Shown here piece after piece: positions 9,672-58,161 of a stretch of DNA of 64,000 nt. The stretch comes from a virus (Duplodnaviria > Heunggongvirae > Uroviricota > Caudoviricetes): positions 54,081 through 118,080 of the IMG/VR virus record IMGVR_UViG_3300028886_000034. One strand, 5' to 3'. Within the stretch, counting starts at the first letter, position 1, and each line of letters opens with the position of its first letter. The notes beneath the pieces were generated by a model that was not told where the DNA came from, did not search any database, and saw nothing but the letters and a program-made list of their open reading frames with translations. The translations under genes and the position numbers were made by a program.

Positions 9672-11207
9672 ATGACAAAATGGTCTGAATGGGAAGTAGA
9701 AGTAATTTCTGTATTAGCATCTTTTAATGATCTGGTATCAAAAGAGGATGCACTAACCCCTAAGTATATTAGTTCTATTTGGTCAATTAGTTATCCAAAT
9801 TTTCCAAGTAGAAGCCCTGATTCTATCAGGCATAAAATGAATTCAGTAACACATACAGATATTGACAGTAGATTTATGGAATATCTTAAGAGTACTCCAA
9901 GGTCTGTTGTTAGTATCAATGATATAGCTATTTTATTTAATGTTCCAGTAGATATTGCTGAAAAAATTGTTAAAGCCATTGAATTTAAACATCATATCTC
10001 TTTCTATGATCAAAAGACTTCTTGTTTTTCAGTAAGAGCTGTTTTAGATTTGGTTGAAGGTAATACTGAATCTACACCAGTAAAGGTTATTCATGCTAAA
10101 GAATTTTTTGAAGAGCAAATGAATATCCTTGATAAGACTACAACTGAGCCTAAGATTATTGAAGTTATTGACCCTGTTCCTAAGACTAAAAAAGAGAAGA
10201 AAGAAAAAGCTGAATCTGAGGATATTCTATTTAATAGGTTGAATGAACTTAGATATGAATTGAATAATCCGGAGACCAGTAAAAATAGAAAGAAATCTAT
10301 TAAGAAGTCTATTAAAAGGATTAAGAAAAAATTAGGAGTATCTGATGAGTACATCTCTTTATATGATAAGGAGCATGACGAGAATGAACAAGATAATACT
10401 CCTACTACAGAAAATATACCTGATCAATCTAAGCTTAAAGATTGGATTGAAGAGGCAGTCCCCGAAACTACTCTTGATAAAGAACCTGTAAGTAATTCTA
10501 CTACAGAAATTGTTCATTTTAAGTTAGGTATTATTTCGGATACACATATTGGTAGTAAATGGTTTGATGCTGATGCTTTAAAAGGATTTTATAAGAAGTG
10601 TAGGGATGAAGGTGTTACCAGAATAATTCATGCTGGAGATCTTTTTGATGGAAGTACTACATATTCATATCAAGAAAAAGATCAGAATCTAGTTGGATAT
10701 AGGGAGCAGTTCAATTGGATTGTAAAGAATTACCCTAAATATGAAGGTATCTCTACTTATATAGTAGCTGGTAATCATGATGTTAATATTATGAAAAAAC
10801 ATAATATTCATCCTATCATTGAATTGGCTAAAGTTAGGTTTGATATTAAGTATAGTGGAGATTACTATACAGATTTTAATAAGCACGGTGTTATTATTAG
10901 AGTAGTTCACTGTGATGGTTCTAATTATTCTGGAGAACCTATGACTAAACTTAAAGGTTTAATTGATACTACTTATAATAAGTGTCATATCTTTATTATG
11001 GGTCATCTTCATCAGGCAATGGAACTTCATGATTATGGTGATGTTCAATATGCTGTAGCTCCAGGTTGTTTTGTTAAACCAAATGAATACACTATTAGAA
11101 GAGCGTATGTACCTGCAGTAGGTGGATTTATCTTAGATGTAACTTATGATCCTTCTACTGATAAAGTTAAAGTAGATTCGAGATGGTTATCTAATGATCA
11201 ATTATAA
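9672..11207 (+). CDS. calcineurin-like metallophosphoesterase domain protein (511 aa) with long N-terminal extension
   Basis: The C-terminal half carries the ordered phosphoesterase motifs GIISDTHIG (DxH), HAGDLFDG (GDxxD), VAGNHD (GNHD) and IMGHLHQ (GHxH). The N-terminal ~300 aa is unassigned and includes a Lys-rich tract. Confidence 0.65.
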   Translation: MTKWSEWEVEVISVLASFNDLVSKEDALTPKYISSIWSISYPNFPSRSPDSIRHKMNSVTHTDIDSRFMEYLKSTPRSVVSINDIAILFNVPVDIAEKIVKAIEFKHHISFYDQKTSCFSVRAVLDLVEGNTESTPVKVIHAKEFFEEQMNILDKTTTEPKIIEVIDPVPKTKKEKKEKAESEDILFNRLNELRYELNNPETSKNRKKSIKKSIKRIKKKLGVSDEYISLYDKEHDENEQDNTPTTENIPDQSKLKDWIEEAVPETTLDKEPVSNSTTEIVHFKLGIISDTHIGSKWFDADALKGFYKKCRDEGVTRIIHAGDLFDGSTTYSYQEKDQNLVGYREQFNWIVKNYPKYEGISTYIVAGNHDVNIMKKHNIHPIIELAKVRFDIKYSGDYYTDFNKHGVIIRVVHCDGSNYSGEPMTKLKGLIDTTYNKCHIFIMGHLHQAMELHDYGDVQYAVAPGCFVKPNEYTIRRAYVPAVGGFILDVTYDPSTDKVKVDSRWLSNDQL

Positions 11208-13888: not shown

Positions 13889-16468
13889 ATGGCTTCACCA
13901 CTAACTACATATATAAGATGGTTAGCTACTGAAGGAAATGTGCCATTTCCAGAGGAATGTAAGTCTCTTAAGATTTCCTCTATTTTAAGTTTAGCTGAAG
14001 AAGATTTTGAAACATCTATTGTATTGAATCAGCTTTTCAATAATCCTTATGCGTATAAGTATTCTATTGAAGATATTGCTAAAGTACATAAGAAGTATAA
14101 CACTATTTATAAGTTTAATTATATTCCTGTTAAACCCGTGTTTCCCAAAATTGAAGAAAAACCTAAAAAGAAAGAAACTGATGTAGTTATTAATAAAAAG
14201 AGTAAATATAAATTGTATAGCTCTAAAGAGAAAGAAGATTCTAAGCCAACTGATGGGTATTCTAAGCCTATGCTGTTTAACTTCTATTCAGACTATGTGA
14301 ATAAGGAATTTGCATATGTTATTAGAGTTGGTGATAAAAGATATATTACTCAGACTGATGATATGGTTATGATGTATACCGGTAAAGATGATTATTTAGA
14401 TGTTCATGATATTGCAGGATTAAAAGGTGAACTGGTACATTATGGTAAAAGAAAATACATTATTGAACAAATTCAGTCAGAATCTTCTTATAAAGCTATT
14501 TATAATGTAGATTTTAATTTGGCTATTCATAAGAATTATCTTTGGAAAAAAGAAAACAAAGATAATCTTGGTCATTATAAACTTAGAGTAAATTATGTTG
14601 ATATTGAGTTGTATCAAGAAGGATATGGTATTATTGACTTTGCTGATATTAAGAAGTCAGCTAGAGTTATTCCCGTTAACTTGATTACTTTGTATGATAA
14701 TTATACTGACAAATATTATACTTTGGTCTATAATTTAAACAAAGCTAAAATTAATACTGAACAAATTAAGGAATATCTTGATTACAAAGATGAGTGTATT
14801 TTCAATGTAGAAATCTTTGATAAAGAAAGTGATATGTTCCTTAAGTTCTTCAGTTTATTGAAAGAATTTGATCCAGATCTAGTATCTGGGTGGAATAGTG
14901 ATGAATTTGATTTACCTTATATTAAGTATAGAGCAGAATTTTTAGGAATTGAACATCCTAAACTGGCTCATAATAAAACTTTTGAAATTGAATATAAAAC
15001 AGTTATGAATAAACATGAAGAGGAAGTTACTTATTGTATTCCTCATATTGGTTATTCTGTAGCACTTGATTATCAAAGATGCTATAAGGAAAGAACTCTT
15101 GGTAAAAAAGAGAATTATAAGCTTGGAACTATTTCTAAAATTGAGTTGGGTATTACTAAACTTGATACTGAAGATGGCATGGATAAAATCTTTAGGGAAG
15201 AACCTGAAAGGTTTATTGCATACAATATTAACGACGTTCATCTTGTAAGAAAATTGGATGAAAAGTTGAAGTATATTGACCTTAATTTTAGTATAGTCCA
15301 GTTGGCTAATATCTCATGGGATAGTATTTATACTACTCTACATATTTGTGATGGGATTCTTTATGAGTATCTTATGGATAGAGATAAAGTAGCCAAAATT
15401 GTTAAAGCTGGAATTGAGAAGAAAAAGTTTGCGGGTGCTTATGTTAGAGAACCAATTAGCGGTGTACATGATTGGTTGGGTGATTTGGATCTTACTTCTC
15501 TTTATCCATACATTATGGCAAGATATAACATTAGTGCAGATACCTATGTAGGAAAAGTTGATACAGATACTGCTAGACAATATATCTTTAATAAAGAAGA
15601 ATTTGTTAATTCCAATACAGATGTAAGTTTGTATTTGAAAGTTCAAGGTATTGAGAGATTGTATAAATTGTCTGCTAAAAGTTTTCATGAAAGAATGCTT
15701 AAGAATGGGTATATTATTACCCAGATTGGCACTATCTTTAAGAAGCATGAAGATAAGCAGTCAGTTCTTTATGATATTGTAGATATGCTCATTAAAAAGA
15801 GAAAAGAGTATAAAGATCTTATGAAGGATAATATTGGTAAAGACCAAATGCTAGTTGACAGATATGATACTATGCAGAAAACAGTTAAGATCATTACTAA
15901 TTCTCTTTATGGTGGTCAGTCCAATATTAGATTCAGATTGTATGATTATGAGGTTGCCAGAAGTATTACTTCTACTGGTAGAGAAATTGCTAAAATCGCC
16001 GCAGTAGTTGCTAATAATTGCATTAATCAAATGATTCAAAATAAATCTAATAAATTTGACCATGTAGATATTCCTTTTGATTGGGATTACCAATCAGAAC
16101 AAGCTCTACCAAATGTAATTTATGGAGATTCAGTTACTGGAGATTCTTTAATCAGAACTGGTAAAGGTAATATAACTATTAAAGAACTTTGGGATATGTG
16201 TGCTTCGGATAATAAAGTGTGGCATTATCTCGGAAAAAATTATATTCAGAATCCTAATAAATGCGTACTTGGATATGATGACAGACTTTATTTCCCAAGG
16301 TATCTGATGAAGCATAAAACTAATAAGAAACTGTATAAGATTACTACTGAATCTGGAAAAACAGTCACTGTAACTGAAGATCATAGTTTGGTAGTAATGA
16401 GAAATAATGTTAAAACTATAATTAAACCAACAGAATTAGTTGTAACAGACCAACTAATCACCTTATAA
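13889..16468 (+). CDS. family-B DNA polymerase, N-terminal gene (palm motifs A, B and first half of C) fused to an N-terminal split-intein fragment (about 112 aa)
   Basis: Pol B motif A is DLDLTSLYPYIM and motif B is KIITNSLYGG. The motif C tripeptide YGD sits at 16121-16129. It is followed directly by an intein block A (SVTGDSLIRTG...IKEL) and block B (VTVTEDHSLVV), then a stop. Confidence 0.9.
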   Translation: MASPLTTYIRWLATEGNVPFPEECKSLKISSILSLAEEDFETSIVLNQLFNNPYAYKYSIEDIAKVHKKYNTIYKFNYIPVKPVFPKIEEKPKKKETDVVINKKSKYKLYSSKEKEDSKPTDGYSKPMLFNFYSDYVNKEFAYVIRVGDKRYITQTDDMVMMYTGKDDYLDVHDIAGLKGELVHYGKRKYIIEQIQSESSYKAIYNVDFNLAIHKNYLWKKENKDNLGHYKLRVNYVDIELYQEGYGIIDFADIKKSARVIPVNLITLYDNYTDKYYTLVYNLNKAKINTEQIKEYLDYKDECIFNVEIFDKESDMFLKFFSLLKEFDPDLVSGWNSDEFDLPYIKYRAEFLGIEHPKLAHNKTFEIEYKTVMNKHEEEVTYCIPHIGYSVALDYQRCYKERTLGKKENYKLGTISKIELGITKLDTEDGMDKIFREEPERFIAYNINDVHLVRKLDEKLKYIDLNFSIVQLANISWDSIYTTLHICDGILYEYLMDRDKVAKIVKAGIEKKKFAGAYVREPISGVHDWLGDLDLTSLYPYIMARYNISADTYVGKVDTDTARQYIFNKEEFVNSNTDVSLYLKVQGIERLYKLSAKSFHERMLKNGYIITQIGTIFKKHEDKQSVLYDIVDMLIKKRKEYKDLMKDNIGKDQMLVDRYDTMQKTVKIITNSLYGGQSNIRFRLYDYEVARSITSTGREIAKIAAVVANNCINQMIQNKSNKFDHVDIPFDWDYQSEQALPNVIYGDSVTGDSLIRTGKGNITIKELWDMCASDNKVWHYLGKNYIQNPNKCVLGYDDRLYFPRYLMKHKTNKKLYKITTESGKTVTVTEDHSLVVMRNNVKTIIKPTELVVTDQLITL

Positions 16469-21925: not shown

Positions 21926-23410
21926 ATGCAACTTACTGCTAGTTTTAACTTTTATAGAAGACCTGGAAATGAAGAAGTATATGATTGGCTTGTAGAAGCA
22001 TGTACTGTTGCTAAGAATTTGTATAATCAGACACTGTACTATGCTTATGAGTTTAAAGAAGCTTATGACCCGGTTAGAGAACAATATAAAAAAGAAACTG
22101 GTAAGTCTTTTCCTTGGTTTCCAGACGAATACGTTGGTTTTGAAAAACCTGTCGATGATTTTTTTAAAGTAATGAGTTTGAGGAGATATGCCAGTGAACA
22201 AGATGAGAACGGTGAGTATTATACTAAAAATCTTGAGGGTAAAAGTAATTGGGAACTACTTAAAAATCTTGTAGGTAGAGATGCAACTACAGAGGTAATT
22301 AGAACATTACTATCTAAAAATTTAAAATCATATGGAAGATCCCTTGGGGATTGGAGTAGGCACCCGGAAAAATATAAAGGAATGCCAAGAAAGCCCGGTT
22401 TTTATAAAAAAGGAGATCTGTGCCCATTATACTTTTCTGGTACTTCTATTAAAATTAACTCAAAAACTAGAAGTCTTGTGTTTCCTAAGCCGAGGGGAAC
22501 GGATGGATATAATAAAAGCATTTATATCCCACTTCAAAAATTGCCACATAATTCGGAGTATGTAAAAGGAAAAAGAATTGACCAAGTTAGGATAATTCCT
22601 AAAAAAGGATATTTTAAGATTGAAATAATTTATACGTATAATGAATCGGTTCCTAAACTTGATAATAAACGATATCTTAGTATTGATTTGGGTATTAGAA
22701 ATTTTTGTACTATAATTACTAGTGATGATAAACTTAATCCAGTTATCCTTGATGGTAATGCTTTGAAATCTAAAATTAGATTTTATCATTTAATGGTAGA
22801 TAAACTTAAACATAAGATTGAAGTTATTACTGATGAAAATGGGAAGAAAAGACCTAAGCAGTATACTACTAAGAGAATTGAAGCAATGACAAAGAATCAT
22901 ATTAATCGTATAAATTATATCGTTGATGCATATACTAAGTATATTGTTAGATATTGCCTCCATTATAATATTTGTAGAGTTATTTGCGGTTGGAATAAAG
23001 ATATGAAGCAGAAGATCAATACTGGGCATAAAAATAATCAAATTATTGTTAACTTTCCTTTTAAAAAACTACTTGACAAACTCGAATATAAGTGTAAAAT
23101 GAGGGGCATAAGCTTCGAGATTGTTGAAGAGTCTTATACTAGTAAAACAGATCATCTTAGAAATGCTCCCTTGGCTACTAAAGAAGACCCTGAAACTAGA
23201 GATGAGGCTAACTTTGGTAAAAGAATTCACAGAGGATTGTTTTCTTCTGGGGTTGGAAAGTTGGTGAATGCTGATGTAAATGGCGCTATGGGTATTATGA
23301 GAAAAGCAATTCCAGATTTTAGTTGGGTTGGATACCATCCATTTCATCCAGTTAGGATGAGAGTTAAAGACGTAATTGAAGGTCTAAAGTATTCTAAATT
23401 CCCTAAATAA
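21926..23410 (+). CDS. TnpB/Cas12-like RuvC-fold protein (494 aa), candidate compact type V CRISPR effector
   Basis: The RuvC-I motif is LSIDLGIRNF (D254). A TnpB-like helix NHINRINYIVDAYTKYIV follows. The YTSK motif is EIVEESYTSKTDH and RuvC-III is NADVNGAMGI (D450). The gene lies directly upstream of a CRISPR array. No CxxC zinc finger is present, and the usual IxxEDLN position reads VICGWNKDM. Confidence 0.7.
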   Translation: MQLTASFNFYRRPGNEEVYDWLVEACTVAKNLYNQTLYYAYEFKEAYDPVREQYKKETGKSFPWFPDEYVGFEKPVDDFFKVMSLRRYASEQDENGEYYTKNLEGKSNWELLKNLVGRDATTEVIRTLLSKNLKSYGRSLGDWSRHPEKYKGMPRKPGFYKKGDLCPLYFSGTSIKINSKTRSLVFPKPRGTDGYNKSIYIPLQKLPHNSEYVKGKRIDQVRIIPKKGYFKIEIIYTYNESVPKLDNKRYLSIDLGIRNFCTIITSDDKLNPVILDGNALKSKIRFYHLMVDKLKHKIEVITDENGKKRPKQYTTKRIEAMTKNHINRINYIVDAYTKYIVRYCLHYNICRVICGWNKDMKQKINTGHKNNQIIVNFPFKKLLDKLEYKCKMRGISFEIVEESYTSKTDHLRNAPLATKEDPETRDEANFGKRIHRGLFSSGVGKLVNADVNGAMGIMRKAIPDFSWVGYHPFHPVRMRVKDVIEGLKYSKFPK

Positions 23411-23520
23411 ACAGGGGATGTATTTGGGTAAGTTTGGCAAACCCATTTAAATAAGATCATCAGAATCAGCGATGTGAATTTAAATAAAGTTAATGAAAAT
23501 TAACTGCCTCCGGATTTATT

Positions 23521-23542
23521 CGGATACGATACTTTTTATTTG
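23521..23542 (+). ncRNA. candidate tracrRNA anti-repeat
   Basis: The segment CGGATACGATACTTTTTATTTG can pair with the repeat 3' half CAAATAAGGGTATCGTAT. ATACGATA pairs with TATCGTAT (8 bp) and ATTTG pairs with CAAAT (5 bp), linked by A-U and G-U pairs. It lies between the effector gene and the array on the same strand. Confidence 0.4.
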
Positions 23543-23621
23543 TTTTTACGTATGGAAAATGCTGTTTTTTACAACTGAATATTGAATAAACTCAGTATTT
23601 GTAAGAGTTTGCGTATAGGAT

Positions 23622-24247
23622 ACTATACGGTACTTACAAATAAGGGTATCGTATAACAAAAGAAGATACAACAGACGATAAAAAAGAACTATACGGTACT
23701 TACAAATAAGGGTATCGTATAACATGATATTAAAGAGTATGCTGATTTGGGTGACTATACGGTACTTACAAATAAGGGTATCGTATAACTCTAACTATTA
23801 CTGCTATTACCTCATCATCACTATACGGTACTTACAAATAAGGGTATCGTATAACGCTATCTTCTTCCTGCATGGTCCATCACATACTATACGGTACTTA
23901 CAAATAAGGGTATCGTATAACAGTGATGTAAAAATGAAATTTAATGATGTTACTATACGGTACTTACAAATAAGGGTATCGTATAACAGACATTTTAAAC
24001 ATGAGTATTTTAGCACTATACGACACTTACAAATAAAGAGTATCGTATAACTTGACGTGCTCTTTCAGTTCTGGTATACTCACTATACGTTACTTATAAA
24101 TAAGGGTATCGTATAACTATGAGCTTTTGGAGTAGTGGAATTGTTTTACCATGTGGACTTACAAATAAGAATATCGTATAATTGATACCTGATTAGTATT
24201 GTATTGCCCATACTATACAGGACCTACAAATAAGAATATTGTGTAAT
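23622..24247 (+). CRISPR. CRISPR array with 10 repeats (35-36 nt; consensus A-CTATACGGTACTTACAAATAAGGGTATCGTATAAC) and 9 unique spacers of about 28-31 nt
   Basis: Repeats begin at 23623, 23689, 23755, 23821, 23887, 23953, 24016, 24083, about 24149 and 24213. The first six are identical and the last four are progressively degenerate. The AT-rich leader is therefore at the 5' side (23410-23620). Confidence 0.85.
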
Positions 24248-24301: not shown

Positions 24302-25297
24302 ATGAAGATAGAGAGTGTTAAATCAATAGAAGTGATTACTCCAGAAGAACCTATTGATGTATATGATATTGAAATGCCAGATGATGATCATTGTTTTTTT
24401 GCAAATGACATATTAGTTCATAATACAGATTCAATTTTTACTAAATATGGCGATGCATTGAAAGCAATTTATGGAAAAGATTATGATGAAATTTCTGACA
24501 AGGAAAAGATAGATAAAGTTATTGAATTGAATGAATCTGTAGCACAGTATATTAATAATGTAATGATTCATGAACTTCTTAATATGCATAATACATCTCC
24601 TACAGAATCTTCGGCTAAAAAGTTTAACTTTAATTTTAAACAGGAACTTGTTATTAGAAGAGCTTTGTTTCTGGAAATCAAAAAGAAGTATGCTATTTGG
24701 TTAGTTTCCAAAGAAGGAAAGCCTTTGGATAAAATCAGTATTAGTGGTATAGAAGTTGTAAGATCTGATTATCCTCAATTTAGCAGAGATATGTTAAATG
24801 ATTTTATTGAGCATATCCTTAAGAAAGGAATCAGTAAAGAAGAGCTTACCACTAAGATTGATGATTATAGAGGTAGATATGTTGAGCAGTTAAAAACAGG
24901 TACAGTTTATTGTGCTATTCCAAGTTCTTGGAATAAAGAAAACTATGCCCAAGATAGACTGCCAAGATCAGTTAAATCTATGTTGGTATATAATGCAATT
25001 TATGGAAGTACCTTTAGAGTAATGGATAGAGGCTATAGATTTGACTTGGAAGAAATTGATATAGGTCAATTTGATTCAGATACACAAAGACGCTTGACAG
25101 ATTTAGTTCGATCTGGTACAATGGGTAAAGAAGGTAAGTTAGATTGTATTACTATTCCTACTAATGGTACATTAGATTTAACTAAGTTTAGAATTAATTA
25201 TAATAAAATGCAAGAATTTGCAGTTGATGATCGTATTTCTAATTTTTGTGATATCTTTGGGATTAAAGTTGATGATCCTAATGATATAGGTTGGTAG
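24302..25297 (+). CDS. C-terminal split-intein fragment (about 41 aa) fused to the C-terminal part of family-B DNA polymerase (rest of motif C plus thumb)
   Basis: The intein blocks F/G end in VYDIEMPDDDHCFFANDILVHN. The C-extein follows immediately and starts TDSIFTKYGD, which completes YGD|TDS. The KKRY-type motif EIKKKYAIW lies downstream. An AAGGA Shine-Dalgarno precedes the gene. Confidence 0.85.
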   Translation: MKIESVKSIEVITPEEPIDVYDIEMPDDDHCFFANDILVHNTDSIFTKYGDALKAIYGKDYDEISDKEKIDKVIELNESVAQYINNVMIHELLNMHNTSPTESSAKKFNFNFKQELVIRRALFLEIKKKYAIWLVSKEGKPLDKISISGIEVVRSDYPQFSRDMLNDFIEHILKKGISKEELTTKIDDYRGRYVEQLKTGTVYCAIPSSWNKENYAQDRLPRSVKSMLVYNAIYGSTFRVMDRGYRFDLEEIDIGQFDSDTQRRLTDLVRSGTMGKEGKLDCITIPTNGTLDLTKFRINYNKMQEFAVDDRISNFCDIFGIKVDDPNDIGW

Positions 25298-28311: not shown

Positions 28312-28755
28312 ATGAAAATTACTGCAACAGTTACTAGGTATTGTGGGTATAAAAGTATTGAAATTAGCCGCTGGAAAAGTGATGAATATGTTGTTGAATC
28401 AAATAATTTATATGATGTGGTTCCGTGGATTGCAGAAAAAATCTGTACTGAGTTTAGTATCGATTTAAATACTATGTATTGCAGACTTATGATAAATGTG
28501 CTGGACGATACTCATTTAAACGTTTATTCTGAAGAAAGCCACATCAATGTTTATGAAGATATTAAAAGTCAAATTGCAAATCTTATTAAAGCTCAATTGA
28601 ATAATCGGGATAATTTACCTTGTACATTTATCCAAGATAAGTCTGTATTTATATTGAATATGTATGCAAAACTAAATAATGGTGGAAATGTTTTGATTAC
28701 TGATGAATGGAGTAATGAGTATTTGCCATCAATACAGATTACTGTTCAAAACTAA
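28312..28755 (+). CDS. hypothetical protein (147 aa)
   Basis: An AGGAGG Shine-Dalgarno precedes it. Confidence 0.55.
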   Translation: MKITATVTRYCGYKSIEISRWKSDEYVVESNNLYDVVPWIAEKICTEFSIDLNTMYCRLMINVLDDTHLNVYSEESHINVYEDIKSQIANLIKAQLNNRDNLPCTFIQDKSVFILNMYAKLNNGGNVLITDEWSNEYLPSIQITVQN

Positions 28756-28817
28756 TTCAAGAGTAAGCAAAAAGAAACCCCTTCCAGTCAGGGTCTCTTT
28801 TCGCCTCTACGGAGACG

Positions 28818-29039
28818 CTACCAGCGCTCCCATCTGTGGCTCTTGGGATTGAACCACAGAAGGACGCGACCGGTTTCGTCCTCGATCCATCGGCCCTGCA
28901 ATTTTCTGCTGGGCTTCTGAGCGAGAACGACGCGCACCTCCAGCTCCGCTTCGGCGGGGTTGGATGTGCGAACGTCCCAGTAGAAGCTTTCGTCTTCACG
29001 GTCGATGACCGCGATGACGATAAACTTCACTTCGTTCAT
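28818..29039 (-). CDS. small hypothetical protein (73 aa) inside GC-rich island 1
   Basis: A strong AAGGAGGTGAAAGA-ATG context is seen on the minus strand. The codon usage is GC-rich and unlike the rest of the phage. Confidence 0.4.
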   Translation of the reverse strand: MNEVKFIVIAVIDREDESFYWDVRTSNPAEAELEVRVVLAQKPSRKLQGRWIEDETGRVLLWFNPKSHRWERW

Positions 29040-29325
29040 TCTTTCACCTCCTTGGTGAATAATCCAGACTACACCCTTTCCTCCTTTCAGTCTGGACCCC
29101 TAAGATTAAATAGTTTGGAAAGTCGCCCTTAGGGTGCTGTGAATATCTTTCCAACGCTGCTTTGCCCATGCTGGTAGGCACACTTGCAGCTAGTGCTTTC
29201 GGTCCCTGAGTTACGTGTTACGTTGGACCTAGACTCTCTGCTTTAGGTAAGAGAGACTTTCACCTTACTCAACTTTACGGCTTGAGTTTACCGTAATACG
29301 CTGCCCCTAAAACTGAAACAGCGCT

Positions 29326-29354
29326 AATATAATATACATATAAAAATATGTTAA
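29326..29354 (-). promoter_or_regulatory. minus-strand promoter TTAACA-N17-TATATT at the edge of GC island 1
   Basis: On the minus strand the -35 TTAACA is at 29354-29349 and the -10 TATATT at 29331-29326. The predicted start site coincides with the first GC-rich base. Confidence 0.4.
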
Positions 29355-29356
29355 TA

Positions 29357-29393
29357 AAACTAGGGGACTATCAATAGTCCCCTAGTTTTATTT
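29357..29393. terminator. bidirectional hairpin terminator
   Basis: A 16-bp stem AAAACTAGGGGACTAT/ATAGTCCCCTAGTTTT has a CAAT loop. It overlaps the stop of the minus-strand gene 29388-29741. Confidence 0.6.
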
Positions 29394-29741
29394 AGGATAG
29401 CAGCAAAGGCCGTTACATCCAATGTGCTTCCCAGCGCTATCTCTGATTGCTTCTCCAGTAATGAATACATCTTTTCTTCTTTCTGGAAGAAGCTCCCATA
29501 TTGCAGTTCCTGCGATTGCTGATACAACAAACACTTTGCCTTCTTCTGAAGAAGGAAGATTCTTTACTTCCCCAAAGTATTTGGCACTAACAGTAATTTC
29601 TCCTTCAGATGTTTCGATAGTTTTTCTTGTTTCAGTTTTTTCCACCAATCTTACAGGAGGCAGATTAGATGGTGGAATACTAATCATGCCGTTACTAGTT
29701 TTGATGTTGATTTCGTGAGGGGTGAGATTAACAATTGTCAT
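29388..29741 (-). CDS. hypothetical protein (117 aa)
   Basis: The ORF is on the minus strand. Confidence 0.5.
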   Translation of the reverse strand: MTIVNLTPHEINIKTSNGMISIPPSNLPPVRLVEKTETRKTIETSEGEITVSAKYFGEVKNLPSSEEGKVFVVSAIAGTAIWELLPERRKDVFITGEAIRDSAGKHIGCNGLCCYPK

Positions 29742-47659: not shown

Positions 47660-47702
47660 AAAAAGAAAAAGAGCAACCATAATGGAGGGTTACTCTTTTT
47701 TC
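47660..47702. terminator. bidirectional hairpin terminator at the edge of GC island 2
   Basis: The stem AAGAGCAACC/GGGTTACTCTT has one mismatch and is flanked by an A-run and a T-run. Confidence 0.55.
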
Positions 47703-47711
47703 TTTGCTGTA

Positions 47712-48290
47712 CTAGGAGCGGGAGATAATCTCCTGTACAGCTTTGAGGACTCGCGCCAGCTTGCCCTCAAACCCGGTGGAATTATCCACCACGATGACAC
47801 CGGGCACATCGTGGTAAGCCATTCGAGTCTTGTGTTCCAGTCGAATGGCATTTTCCGCATTACCCTTCCTAGCAGGGTTGTTAGCGGTAGTGTAACAGTT
47901 AGTGCCAACCGCTGCGGATACTAGATGGATGAAACCGTTATAACGACGAACAACCTCATCCATCGAAAGGTTGCTCATCGTAAGGAGTTCCCGGAACTCA
48001 TCTGACGTAACATACGCCATCTGGTCCAGGAGGGAGCGGTCGCACAGCACAACCGAACGGTCATACTGTGCGGCCTCCTCTATTGCACGGTGCTCAAGCA
48101 GAAGCTGGCGCTGGAACACCTTCTTCTGGAATGAGAACGTTCCAGGAGAGTTCCCTTCCAGGATAACCTCCGTGGCTGCCTCTGGTGCGACAACTACGGT
48201 CCAGCCATGGAGTCTATCCCGAAGGTACTCCATGGCACTGCTCTTTCCCCCACAAGGACCACCTGTGAGGGCGATTTTGACCATCTTCAT
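47712..48290 (-). CDS. P-loop NTPase/kinase of the AAA_28 (NadR-like nucleoside kinase) type (192 aa), GC-rich
   Basis: AAGGAGG precedes the ATG at 48290. It carries Walker A IALTGGPCGGKSS, followed by the VVAPEAATEV-type segment typical of small P-loop kinases. Confidence 0.6.
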   Translation of the reverse strand: MKMVKIALTGGPCGGKSSAMEYLRDRLHGWTVVVAPEAATEVILEGNSPGTFSFQKKVFQRQLLLEHRAIEEAAQYDRSVVLCDRSLLDQMAYVTSDEFRELLTMSNLSMDEVVRRYNGFIHLVSAAVGTNCYTTANNPARKGNAENAIRLEHKTRMAYHDVPGVIVVDNSTGFEGKLARVLKAVQEIISRS

Positions 48291-48372
48291 GATGGCCTCC
48301 TTTCTCCCCCTAAGTGGGGGTAAAAACAATCCCCCTCCCCGAGCATAGGAAGGGGAATTAAACTAGACTGAG

Positions 48373-48834
48373 TTAGCCCTGGATTGCCAGGGCTCGGTTT
48401 TTATACCGCTTGTCCTCAGTCACCTCGGCCCCGAACCAGGCCGGAGGCACGAACTTCTGTGCCTCGGCCTCAGAGCCGAATTCTACCTCGACCACTTTGA
48501 GGTGGTTGAGGCGACCATGGTACAGGTCTACCTCATACCCTTCGGCAGTCAGGTAGCGAGTTTTGCTGATGGTGCGGTCGCCAGCCACACTAATTAGCTC
48601 CTTAAATTGCGCGGAGGTGATTGGCACCTCGACTTCCGCTCGACACAGGCCGGTGCCAGCCTTGATGGTAAGGAAGAATTCCTCACCATCATTCGAAGTG
48701 CGGCGGCGAACCCGCGCTTCGTTTTTGCCCTCTAGGAGCACGTAACCCTGTAGGATTTCGTACTCCTTAATCACATTGAGGGAGAAGGGCACTGCTCCCT
48801 CAATGAGGAACTTGCGTTCCACTTCCATGGTCAT
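48373..48834 (-). CDS. CYTH-domain protein (triphosphate tunnel metalloenzyme / CyaB-like, 153 aa), GC-rich
   Basis: GGAGGTG precedes the ATG at 48834. The N-terminal signature MEVERKFLI is the ExExK motif of CYTH. A later segment reads ARVRRR...EFFLTIK. Confidence 0.6.
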   Translation of the reverse strand: MTMEVERKFLIEGAVPFSLNVIKEYEILQGYVLLEGKNEARVRRRTSNDGEEFFLTIKAGTGLCRAEVEVPITSAQFKELISVAGDRTISKTRYLTAEGYEVDLYHGRLNHLKVVEVEFGSEAEAQKFVPPAWFGAEVTEDKRYKNRALAIQG

Positions 48835-49111
48835 CACCTCCAGTGATATGTTTCTGGCCCCATGGACTTGGCCTGGGAATTCCTGTGGGAGATTCACTTT
48901 ATAGTGAATTGAGACCCATCTGTTCCCGAATAGTATTATATACATACAAATTTTAACCTATTAGATAAATACAGTTAATTCTAGTGACTGGATTATTTTT
49001 AGTATTTGGTACAAAACTAATTCTTAAAAAATTTTGAACAAATCTTAGGGTATACTAACACAGAAAGTAGTCTCCCTATATTATACATTATAGAGAGGAG
49101 ATTATATACTA

Positions 49112-53260: not shown

Positions 53261-54123
53261 TACTTTAGTAAATCGCCGCCAACATCTACTATATCTTCAG
53301 CTTTATTACTTCTAGTTGTATTGAGCATAAATAAGATACTTAATAACCATCCCTTTATAATAGATATAAAGCCTAAAAATATACCTGAAACCATAGCCCC
53401 TATTGCTAATGGAGTATATGATTTATCAGCAAGATATTGTAGTGCAGCATCGCTGTTAGGTATTCCTAATGCACCAAATAATCCACTAAATCTAGCCTTT
53501 GCAAATTCTGAAGCACTAAATCCACCGGCTTTTAATGAAGCGTATCCTAATAAAAAAGGTATTAATGTTATGACGACAAATATTAGCATTGAGCTTAAAG
53601 TAAATAATATAGGGTGCTTAACGGTTTTTCGAATATAGGAGTTTAATTTAGATACTTTGTTTTGCCCGATTATCTTCCAATATAAAAATCTTGTCATAAC
53701 TCCCCAAGCCAAAATCCAGCTAACAATTTTACCTCTTCCTGCCTCTCTATTCATAGAGTAGGTTATCCAAGATGCTTCAATACATCCAACTCTAAACTCT
53801 TCTGGTAAATTTTTAGAAGAAAATTTTTTACGAAGATTTTTATCTATAAGCTTTTTAATTTCTTCATCATTATCAGTATTTCGAATCTTATTAACATCCT
53901 GCATCCATTCGCTATCGTTAATTCCAGGAGTTTGTTTTGATGCTTTAGAAAGCTTTTTTAGTCCATCTGTACAGAGTTTTTTAATTGAATCCATTGTTGT
54001 GCCTTCTGAAAAATTCTGACTATAAAACTTTATAGCTCTGTTTAGATTTTCAGCATTATCTATATATGGAAATTTATTAGTATAATTATCATATACTTCT
54101 TTTAATATAAGTTTTTTATTCAT
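53260..54123 (-). CDS. membrane-anchored protein, paralog family member 1 (287 aa)
   Basis: It shares an N-terminal region with 55775 and 57052: KFPYID..., KKLCTDGLKKLSK, NLPEEF.VGCIE..WITY..NREAGRGK.VS.ILAW.V..RF.Y.K, then hydrophobic helices. Confidence 0.6.
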   Translation of the reverse strand: MNKKLILKEVYDNYTNKFPYIDNAENLNRAIKFYSQNFSEGTTMDSIKKLCTDGLKKLSKASKQTPGINDSEWMQDVNKIRNTDNDEEIKKLIDKNLRKKFSSKNLPEEFRVGCIEASWITYSMNREAGRGKIVSWILAWGVMTRFLYWKIIGQNKVSKLNSYIRKTVKHPILFTLSSMLIFVVITLIPFLLGYASLKAGGFSASEFAKARFSGLFGALGIPNSDAALQYLADKSYTPLAIGAMVSGIFLGFISIIKGWLLSILFMLNTTRSNKAEDIVDVGGDLLK

Positions 54124-55774: not shown

Positions 55775-56959
55775 TTATATTGCAGGTGCTAATCCATTAG
55801 AATTAGTTGTAGGAGGCATTAAATTAGAAAGTTTTGTTTTATATTGCTGTTTTAATTGACCTAACTTATTACGAGCAGCTGTAGCGGTATGTACTGTGCG
55901 ATTAATTAAATTATATGTTCTTGGATTTGTCCTTTTTAAATTTTCTGGTTGGCGTATATAGGCAGATACTAAATCTGATCCATACAATCTAATTAAAGGC
56001 CAAAATACAGCATAATTTGCTGCATATAAACTTTGTGGTAATGCTGACGGCATTAATGGACCTGAAGCATCTCCAGAAAGACCAGGGGTTAAATCATAAA
56101 AATTTTTTTCTGCATTATGGTATTGAAAATTAAAAGGGTTATAGTATCCTCCCATAGAGCCAAGTTTTTGTCTTATATTATAATAACGATCTGATAATCC
56201 TTCAGAAAGATCGACATCTACAACCCCTGTACTAGCAGTACTTCTAGTTTTATTTAATTCAAATAAAGTTTGCATCATAAATTTATACATTGCTTGAAGT
56301 ATAGATACAGCACCTATTGAAGTTAAAGTTAAACCTGCTAAAGTTCCAGTGACTGGTAACGAATACGGTGTAGTTGTAATTGTTGCATATCCTAATAAAA
56401 AAGGTATTAAATTTACTACTAAATTTATTAAAGAAGAACCTAATGTAAATAGTATAGGTTGTTTTATAGTTTTTTCTATGTAAGAAGTTAACTTAGATAA
56501 TTTATTTTGTTTAAATATTTTCCAATATAAGAATCTTACTATAACTGCCCATGCTAAAATATAACTAACAACTTTACCTCTACCTGCTTGTCTATTTAAA
56601 GCATAAGTAATCCATCCAGATTCGTAGCATCCTATAACGAAATCTTCTGGTAAATTTTTAGCTGAAAACTTTTTTCTAATTTCTCTATCAATAATCTTTT
56701 TTACTTCTTTATCAGAAGTACTATTTTTTATTTTTTCGATATCATCTCTCCAAGAACTATCAGTAACAATTTTATTTTTAGTTATTTTACTTAAGCCATC
56801 TTTACATAATTTTTCAAGTGATTCCTTAGAAGGAATGACATTTTCTGAGAAGTATCTATTATAATATTTATTGGATATTTCATAAATTTCCTGTGATTCA
56901 ATATATGGAAATTTATCTTTAACACTAGAGTGTATTTCTTTAAAAATATAATTGTTCAT
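55775..56959 (-). CDS. membrane-anchored protein, paralog family member 2 (394 aa)
   Basis: It shares the same conserved N-terminal region as 53260 and 57052. Confidence 0.6.
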   Translation of the reverse strand: MNNYIFKEIHSSVKDKFPYIESQEIYEISNKYYNRYFSENVIPSKESLEKLCKDGLSKITKNKIVTDSSWRDDIEKIKNSTSDKEVKKIIDREIRKKFSAKNLPEDFVIGCYESGWITYALNRQAGRGKVVSYILAWAVIVRFLYWKIFKQNKLSKLTSYIEKTIKQPILFTLGSSLINLVVNLIPFLLGYATITTTPYSLPVTGTLAGLTLTSIGAVSILQAMYKFMMQTLFELNKTRSTASTGVVDVDLSEGLSDRYYNIRQKLGSMGGYYNPFNFQYHNAEKNFYDLTPGLSGDASGPLMPSALPQSLYAANYAVFWPLIRLYGSDLVSAYIRQPENLKRTNPRTYNLINRTVHTATAARNKLGQLKQQYKTKLSNLMPPTTNSNGLAPAI

Positions 56960-58038: not shown

Positions 58039-58161
58039 GTGCTTAATTTAACACCTACTTATATCTTTTTGTAAGAAACACTTATTTTAGACTGAGTTAA
58101 AGTAGTCTAAAATAAGTGTTTCTTATGATTCTTCTTTTTAGTATATTATAGAGTTATTATT

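Follow-up and report, generated by a model that had tools for sequence, protein, structure and literature searches.

A GC-rich accessory cassette with a strongly folded mRNA in the replication module of an AT-rich jumbo phage

Organization of the cassette and its product

The DNA analyzed here, a stretch of 64,000 nucleotides (positions 54,081 to 118,080 of IMG/VR record IMGVR_UViG_3300028886_000034; hereafter "the window"), belongs to an AT-rich tailed phage (GC content ~30%) and comprises a tRNA cluster as well as genes coding for SSB, a DnaB-like helicase, an intein-containing family-B DNA polymerase, Dam, tail sheath, and TnpB. Since a 288-kb contig carries identical proteins, the window represents a jumbo phage, taken here to be an AT-rich jumbo myovirus. 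A DNA similarity search in near and distant modes against 50,697 phage records gave no match, and the phage was found neither among GenBank phages nor in the IMG/VR collection as searched. Between the helicase and Dam genes, in the replication module, a GC-rich island harbors a cassette comprising a predicted promoter, a leader, a small open reading frame (ORF) for a protein of 73 amino acids (aa), and a terminator. A first-pass annotation of the window had focused on the leader of this unit. However, the mRNA is structure-selected, and its strongest folding, overlooked in that annotation, resides in the coding region and the 3' untranslated region (UTR).

Over positions 28700–29300, the GC content amounts to 0.47–0.60, as compared to ~0.30 in the flanks. 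The proposal that the island is a self-contained unit was supported, with a predicted promoter, the ORF, and hairpins at both ends organized along the minus strand. Contigs of JGI, ENA, and Logan, stemming from separate assemblies, all carry the island with 100% identity and the same junctions; therefore, it is not an assembly artefact, and misassembly, which the first-pass annotation had named as a possible refutation, is excluded. The predicted sigma-70-like promoter (29326–29354, minus strand), recognized there as TTAACA-N17-TATATT, matches at 10 of 12 positions, with its -35 box (TTAACA) at 29354–29349 and its -10 box (TATATT) at 29331–29326. It contains the motif TATGTATATTATA (29340–29328), whose sole other exact copy in the window heads a second GC-rich island (GC island 2, see below). 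The promoter is kept in the related contigs L001 and L003–L005, which carry other haplotypes of the cassette, and is recognizable in contigs L011, L012, and L013. Its -35 region is overlapped by a hairpin of 19 perfectly matched bp, bordered by T-runs on either side (29353–29392), which corresponds to the bidirectional terminator suggested previously and represents the terminator of an upstream minus-strand gene coding for a 117-aa protein.

The transcription start (about 29319–29324) and the length of the transcript (~555 nt) are predictions from sequence; the distance from this start to the ATG agrees with the ~280-nt leader proposed before. The ORF (29039–28818, minus strand) extends from an ATG, preceded by AAGGAGGTGAAAGA with a perfect Shine-Dalgarno site and described in the first-pass annotation as a strong start, to a TAG stop codon, which is replaced by TAA in L001. 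At the downstream end, where a terminator had been placed at about 28772–28804, folding revealed a hairpin with a U-tract at 28767–28804, albeit a simple terminator scan did not pick it up; it is common to the cassette (minus strand) and an adjoining gene for a 147-aa protein (plus strand). In L012, the 3' arm and the U-tract of this terminator are also present after a different cargo. Repeats common to the island and the rest of the window, GC island 2, or the TnpB region were not found. In several assemblies (L006–L008), the gene caller did not report the 73-aa ORF and left a seemingly "empty" gap of 630 nt (for example, positions 10355–10986 of L006); annotation may systematically miss short GC-rich genes that are hyper-structured in this way.

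The sole relative of the 73-aa protein is P0001, encoded on contig L001 and sharing 89% sequence identity. The 27 nucleotide differences between the two ORFs are distributed 9/0/18 over codon positions 1, 2, and 3, and of the resulting codon changes, 16 are synonymous and 8 are, for the most part, conservative; by our calculation, the probability of 0 out of 27 changes at second positions is ~2e-5 in the absence of a codon constraint. Because the substitutions split in this way, the ORF (28818–29039, minus strand) is protein-coding, and the pattern indicates purifying selection. The product is charged and hydrophilic. A search of 5.8 billion proteins did not reveal any homologue beyond the 89% relative, and comparisons with Pfam, PHROGs, NCBIfam, and PDB as well as tblastn against phages yielded nothing convincing. 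Matches from exhaustive HMMER searches (fn3, G5, and zinc-finger arrays) involved heterogeneous repeat proteins and were judged spurious. An AlphaFold model of the protein was poor (pLDDT 54), too poor to justify a fold search. Divergence between the ORF haplotypes amounts to 12%, as compared to ~5% in the flanks.

Folding of the coding region and of the leader

The minimum free energy of the ORF is -112.7 kcal/mol, as compared to -73.3 +/- 4.7 kcal/mol for dinucleotide shuffles (z -8.35), and 72% of the ORF mRNA is base-paired. Against the same type of shuffles, z reaches -9.47 for the ORF plus terminator and -10.2 for the full transcript, which forms ~14 hairpins in ~555 nt. The lowest z among 387 scanned segments of 220 nt was that of positions 28876–29095, which overlap the 5' part of the ORF and the 3' end of the leader. 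Segments with extreme folding outside the two GC-rich islands, at 56.9 kb and 57.9–58.1 kb, coincide with intergenic inverted repeats, among them a perfect 22-bp AT-rich inverted repeat at 58072–58125 and other long intergenic hairpins at 56765–56956; these are probably ordinary terminators.

Synonymous shuffles, which leave protein and codon usage unchanged, fold far worse than the native sequences (z -6.1 for the window ORF and -7.5 for the L001 ORF), the median of this score over the 70 window ORFs of at least 90 codons being -0.77. Despite its 27 substitutions, the L001 ORF folds at -111.0 kcal/mol. In contrast, when the window ORF was randomly mutated with 18 synonymous third-position and 9 first-position changes, 600 such mutants had a mean of -77.5 kcal/mol (sd 7.0), and the best of them reached -101 kcal/mol. 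The two-sequence consensus fold comprises 98 pairs, none of which is broken by the substitutions; 14 are switched between Watson-Crick and G-U, and one is doubly compensated. A hairpin in the 5' part of the ORF (H1; 28979–29031, minus strand, ORF nt 9–61, with its core at 29020–28990) includes five L001 substitutions that keep or improve pairing. It is followed by a four-way-junction domain (28803–28987, minus strand), closed by a stem between ORF nt 53–68 and 16 nt after the stop codon, whose arms (ORF nt 70–107, 110–164, and 166–220; ~40–55 nt each) lie ahead of the terminator.

The antisense strand of the ORF also folds well (z -6.3). In L001, however, the sense strand folds at -111.0 kcal/mol with 13 G-U pairs and the antisense strand at only -87.5 kcal/mol; this gap of 23 kcal/mol in favor of the sense strand indicates that the constraint acts on the minus-strand RNA rather than on duplex DNA. 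In four runs, synonymous optimization of the ORF by simulated annealing arrived at -120 to -135 kcal/mol and a GC content of 0.57–0.60, while random synonymous recodings fold at -62 kcal/mol. The native ORF (-112.7 kcal/mol at a GC content of 0.57) thus achieves about 70% of the gain attainable in silico at the same GC content. Since the optimized recodings reach a native-like GC content, GC-richness is what selection for folding would produce. As to the horizontally acquired cassette proposed in the first-pass annotation, the foreign-looking composition and the predicted promoter and terminator fit the proposal, but the GC-richness need not signal horizontal origin alone and may be a consequence of folding selection.

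The leader was compared among three haplotypes, namely, the window type, that of L003/L004/L005, and that of L001. It consists of an exchangeable 5' module (29256–29324, minus strand), which contains a 5'-terminal hairpin GCGCUGUUUC/GGGGCAGCG (29324–29298) and a second short hairpin, and a core (29040–29255, minus strand), which is 97% identical between haplotypes, moderately folded, and interrupted by stop codons in all three frames. The 5' module cannot be aligned between haplotypes, yet the terminal and the second hairpin occur at the same places in both versions. Not only these first ~65 nt but also the upstream terminator and the gene for a 117- or 118-aa protein beyond it are unalignable; the simplest reading of this pattern is a recombination breakpoint near position 29256, with promoters that would be alike as members of one promoter family. 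Divergence of the core (3%) is near the ~5% of the flanking genes. We dropped the argument that conservation of the leader exceeds that of synonymous sites, because the ORF of L003 is identical to that of the window while the leaders show eight differences; the haplotypes are therefore mosaics. Recoding of stop codons in the leader, considered on account of a tRNA with a CUA anticodon, was likewise rejected, as TAA and TGA stops also interrupt every frame.

Folding of the leader exceeds that of shuffles only modestly (z -2.9 for 29030–29330, -1.7 for 29040–29320, and -1.9 for the core). A random-mutant test on the 7–8 core substitutions, which are too few to test structure, gave a p of about 0.2. 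Of the three helices previously claimed, CCAGACT/AGTCTGG and CUCUCU/AGAGAG occur in every fold; GGCAGCG..GCAGCGTTGG lacks complementarity, being a direct repeat, and in its place the fold pairs GCUGC with GCAGC. The riboswitch-like leader or regulatory RNA of a new class envisaged in the first-pass annotation found no support. At gathering score, only tRNAs passed in an Rfam scan of the whole window, and even at E<=10 no family matched the leader core in the region 28600–29500; matches at this threshold in or near the unit were weak and centered on terminator hairpins or, in three cases, on short ORF stretches. Relatives beyond the three near-identical haplotypes were not found, nor was any covarying pair in the leader core, so the hallmark of riboswitches, a conserved covarying aptamer recurring upstream of related genes, is not displayed. 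Exact-pattern scans with four core segments over IMG/VR, JGI metagenome contigs, and GTDB genomes did not detect relatives of the leader RNA; two 21-mer matches in metagenomes were discarded as chance, being located in unrelated contigs of 56–59% GC. The first-pass annotation thus located a real and unusual unit but placed the interest in the wrong part of it; it is the coding region that is worth following up.

The CCAGACU/AGUCUGG hairpin (29061–29098, minus strand) presents a loop of 16–18 nt with a sequence resembling a Shine-Dalgarno (SD) site, GAAAGGAGGAAAGG, which is not followed by a conserved start codon. The most accessible 15-mer of the whole transcript, AAGGAGGAAAGGGUG, lies in this loop (unpaired probability 0.97–1.0), and an A-to-G change in the loop of L003 still pairs with a U of the anti-SD sequence. 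The true SD sequence AAGGAGGUGA (29044–29053, minus strand) is partly masked by UUCACC, its unpaired probability being ~0.42. The UUCACC element (29060–29055) can pair with either a GGUGAA at the 5' end of the core or the GGUGAA in the SD site, at near-equal energies. The AUG region is comparatively open (0.57–0.81 unpaired) as compared to the rest of the ORF (0.27).

The exposed SD-like loop resembles a STAB-SD stabilizer or a ribosome standby site. STAB-SD elements of Firmicutes, as described for cry3A, are SD-like sequences in the 5' UTR that do not initiate an ORF, can pair with the 3' end of 16S rRNA, and are reported to block RNase J1 (PMC4113751). In the cassette, GAAAGGAGG at -47 is located in the loop, predicted to be fully unpaired (0.97–1.0), and devoid of a conserved start codon after it, and a hairpin is present at the predicted 5' end of the transcript, recalling the 5'-terminal stem-loops that also count among the mRNA stabilizers of Firmicutes. 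However, the likeness is one of sequence and predicted fold, and in the window haplotype, but not in the others, the loop is followed by GUG-UAG. SD use suggests that the host might be a Firmicute.

Cargo exchange and further structured genes

The insertion site is a cargo-swapping hot spot of this jumbo-phage lineage. In L011, L012, and L013, whose helicases are 89%, 83%, and 72% identical, respectively, to that of the window, the 73-aa unit is absent, and other cargo lies between the helicase gene and the Dam (or an HNH) gene, namely, orphan genes coding for proteins of 80 aa (L011), 206 aa (L012), and 200 aa (L013). Each is encoded by the minus strand and preceded by a similar promoter as well as a 5' hairpin; their leaders are short (~100–200 nt) and unrelated to that of the cassette. 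Folding z-scores of this cargo are -5.2 for L011, -1.7 for L012, and -4.3 for the 200-aa gene of L013. Another cassette of L013 (11230–11580, minus strand), which was not called, has the same layout as the 73-aa cassette, comprising a promoter-like motif TATATATATATTA, a leader of ~100 nt, an SD site GGTGGAGGTG, a GC-rich ORF for 64 aa, and a terminator, but its z is only -0.3. A truncated ORF at the contig end of L013 (13332–13656, minus strand; GC content 0.47) shows a synonymous-shuffle z of -7.0 and thus represents a further hyper-structured gene in a relative.

The gene upstream of the cassette (29388–29741, minus strand) codes for the 117-aa protein mentioned above, whose matches to PHROGs 30542 and 21731, both of unknown function, are confined to the C-terminal parts of these families. 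At its position, L001, L003, and L004 carry a very divergent gene for a 118-aa protein (973–1329 in L003) which matches the same two PHROG families; the L003 allele has a GC content of 61% and a structured mRNA (z -3.9).

GC island 2 (47690–48950, minus strand; 52–56% GC) codes for a 205-aa protein of the AAA_28 type (NadR-kinase-like) and for another with a CYTH domain, and synonymous-shuffle z-scores of its genes range from -6.7 to -9.1. The 13-mer TATGTATATWATA occurs in exactly two copies in the window, which head both islands on the same strand (island-2 copy at 48946–48934), and the promoter motif is common to island 2 and the hot-spot cargo of the relatives. CYTH homologues in three other phages have GC contents of 0.36–0.40 and z-scores of -0.1 to -2.0. 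Hyper-structure is thus frequent among the accessory cargo of the lineage, though not universal. The idea that the promoter motif and hyper-structure are strictly linked was abandoned, as the 206-aa cargo of L012 and the 64-aa cargo of L013 are not hyper-structured.

Interpretation and additional features of the window

In its organization, the cassette is similar to two types of accessory elements. Morons are extra genes between conserved phage genes, with a promoter and terminator of their own and a deviant GC content (PMC3594210). Like such elements, for example that of HK97 gene 15, the cassette is inserted between conserved genes, which in L011, L012, and L013 enclose other cargo and no such unit; its base composition is unlike that of its neighbors (0.47–0.60 vs ~0.30), and a consensus promoter and a terminator hairpin are predicted and conserved. 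The moron concept, though, comes from temperate phages, in which the repressed prophage expresses these genes. We are not aware of morons described as having a coding region selected for extreme folding. In the PeSL (promoter-early stem-loop) cassettes of T4-type phages, hyperplastic regions hold non-essential orphan genes bordered by a conserved sigma-70-like promoter and by stem-loop terminators, and recombination between these elements swaps the cargo (PMC2839356). Similarly, a terminator hairpin abuts the conserved promoter of the cassette, and relatives hold different cargo between similar ends. However, the cassette motif TATGTATATWATA is another sequence and is present in two copies in 64 kb, as opposed to dozens for PeSL, and recombination at the motif is putative, the one mapped breakpoint being located ~65 nt inside the leader (~29256).

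Given the anatomy of the unit, its hot-spot context, the coding status of the ORF, and an extreme structure conserved through 12% divergence, we favor, with somewhat better than even confidence, a moron-type accessory cassette encoding a 73-aa orphan protein on a structure-selected mRNA that is built for stability. The conserved promoter would drive a ~555-nt transcript that ends at the intrinsic terminator and is translated into the orphan protein. Persistence of this transcript could be conferred by the 5'-terminal hairpin, the exposed SD-like loop (acting in a STAB-SD-like or standby-like manner), and an open initiation site. From about codon 7 through the 3' UTR, near-continuous hairpins would be kept by natural selection on the sense RNA, the 3' domain being locked to the terminator. 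Codon choice, and to some extent amino-acid choice, would be tuned for folding, raising the GC content to 57% in a genome of 30% GC. The structure might protect the mRNA, which is probably nuclease-resistant, from single-strand-specific ribonucleases or from pairing with antisense or guide RNAs, and/or it might meter translation. As for the 73-aa product, it probably acts in host interaction or counter-defence; the faster divergence of the ORF would, we conjecture, suit such a role.

Several points weigh against this interpretation. Only two distinct ORF haplotypes are available, making the conservation of structure one comparison, though a strong one, and the transcription start is a prediction. 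The core genes of the phage are AU-rich and unstructured, so a need to evade nucleases would not be phage-wide, and cargo behind this type of promoter is not always hyper-structured, as illustrated by the 206-aa gene of L012 and the 64-aa gene of L013. For an orphan protein with a poor model (pLDDT 54), the assigned role is a guess. Moreover, heavy folding within the coding region could reduce translation rather than increase output.

One alternative places the function in the RNA. RNAIII of S. aureus is a dual-function RNA of ~500–550 nt with about a dozen hairpins that encodes a small protein. The cassette transcript is of similar size, built of hairpins, and encodes a small protein, but no sequence or Rfam relationship to RNAIII was found, and in the cassette it is the ORF itself that has the strongest structure. 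If the folded RNA were the effector and the ORF subsidiary, the RNA might be a decoy or sponge; its target could be, for example, RNase III, a defence sensing double-stranded or structured RNA, or another RNA-binding host factor. A selection on structure as strong as or stronger than that on the protein, the wealth of hairpins with a closed four-way-junction domain involving the 3' UTR, and the poorly modeled orphan product would all agree with this idea. We nevertheless regard it as unlikely, as the same folding in the ordinary enzyme domains of island 2 (AAA_28 and CYTH) points to a property of mRNAs, the hairpins lack a common sequence family, and the zero second-position substitutions imply that the protein matters. 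The folding in the island-2 enzymes also speaks against a brake, i.e. slow or conditional translation of a potentially toxic small protein, in which ribosomes would use the SD-like loop for standby. Tight folding is known for mRNAs of type I toxins, and the partly masked true SD, the highly accessible SD-like loop 47 nt upstream, and stable hairpins starting directly after the initiation region would suit such control. However, type I systems combine a small hydrophobic membrane toxin with an overlapping or adjacent antisense RNA; the 73-aa protein is hydrophilic and charged and not a membrane peptide, an antisense promoter inside the unit was not found, and no antisense RNA gene is evident, which renders a brake rather improbable.

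A switch residing in the ~280-nt leader, riboswitch-like or responsive to a ligand or protein, has to be judged slightly less probable still. Pairing of UUCACC with the 5' GGUGAA (stem P1) would leave the SD free, whereas pairing with the GGUGAA of the SD would mask it; both pairings are available in all haplotypes at near-equal energy, the window and L003 folding with P1 and L001 with the SD hairpin, and the core is 97% conserved despite stops in all three frames. Yet neither Rfam, even at E<=10, nor any collection searched contains a relative, z is only -1.7 to -2.9, the random-mutant test was not significant (p about 0.2), the 3% divergence of the core is close to the ~5% of the flanking genes, and the leaders of other hot-spot cargo are short and unrelated. 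It is very improbable that part of the leader encodes a second protein of 41–45 aa in frame 0 (GTG 29181 or ATG 29169 to TGA 29044), with translation coupled to that of the 73-aa ORF. This frame lacks stops over ~70 codons and terminates within the SD site, and in our reading of the alignment, four of the six substitutions within it are third-position and synonymous; on the other hand, neither candidate start is preceded by an SD, a proportion of four out of six has a p of about 0.1 by our binomial estimate, and no gene caller reports the frame. The least probable of the explanations considered is that the folding is inherited baggage from a donor with intrinsically folded genes, such as an RNA replicon, or reflects single-stranded DNA hairpins acting in replication or recombination near the replication genes. 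A composition unlike the rest of the phage, the location within the replication module, and the well-folding antisense strand (z -6.3) could be explained in this way, but the structure is actively maintained in the phage lineage through 27 substitutions, the G-U pairs of L001 favor the sense RNA by 23 kcal/mol, and the protein and DNA collections searched did not contain a donor sequence.

Returning to the moron-type cassette with an mRNA built for stability, this reading can be extended, tentatively and at well below even odds, to the GC-rich islands as a class of naturally "armoured" mRNAs, i.e. accessory, possibly counter-defence genes whose codons are selected for near-complete pairing. 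If so, their transcripts would persist and be translated in the presence of single-strand-specific RNases, RNA-guided immunity (Cas13, type III), or the host shut-off exerted by the phage itself. Composition islands of phages are routinely read as recent horizontal transfer. In this phage, GC excess coincides with very strong mRNA-folding selection on top of protein coding, and it does so in two separate islands, whereas homologous genes in other phages do not show this selection. If the extended reading is true, a GC island of an AT-rich phage can point to RNA folding under selection and not to foreign origin alone.

Genome-scale ordered RNA structure is known from single-stranded RNA (ssRNA) phages, and synthetic mRNAs have been structure-optimized. 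As in these, synonymous choices in the 73-aa ORF serve to maximize base-pairing; the cassette differs in being a gene of a DNA phage, with the property confined to a few accessory islands. If the folding protects transcripts, it would represent a natural counterpart of structure-optimized synthetic mRNAs and could be an unrecognized means by which phage accessory genes escape RNA-level host defences or decay, and the synonymous-shuffle z-score would provide a simple computational flag for finding such genes. The hot spot and the common promoter furthermore offer a handle on accessory-gene exchange in the jumbo-phage lineage.

The replication module also contains a gene coding for a TnpB protein (OrfB_IS605 / Cas12f-like TNB) of 494 aa (21926–23410). 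About 600 nt after this gene (23431–24145) fold strongly (z -4 to -5) and may represent its guide (omega) RNA; Rfam gave no match for this stretch. The TnpB gene lies between the intein-bearing PolB gene (13889–16468) and a second ORF (24302–25297) whose counterpart in relatives has a PolB domain. An intein splicing domain is located at the end of the former ORF (residues 760–857), so the family-B DNA polymerase appears to be interrupted by an intein. The tRNA with the anticodon CUA (an amber suppressor labelled Pyl), which had given rise to the recoding hypothesis, was predicted by ARAGORN at 1827–1920 (94 nt) and not reported by the Rfam tRNA model; conversely, a tRNA at 2037–2107 was reported by Rfam and missed by ARAGORN. 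On the other side of the cassette terminator, L005 (703–846) carries ~140 extra nt, as compared to window positions 28693–28708, either within the 147-aa gene adjoining the island or at the end of that gene, extending its product to at least 168 aa.

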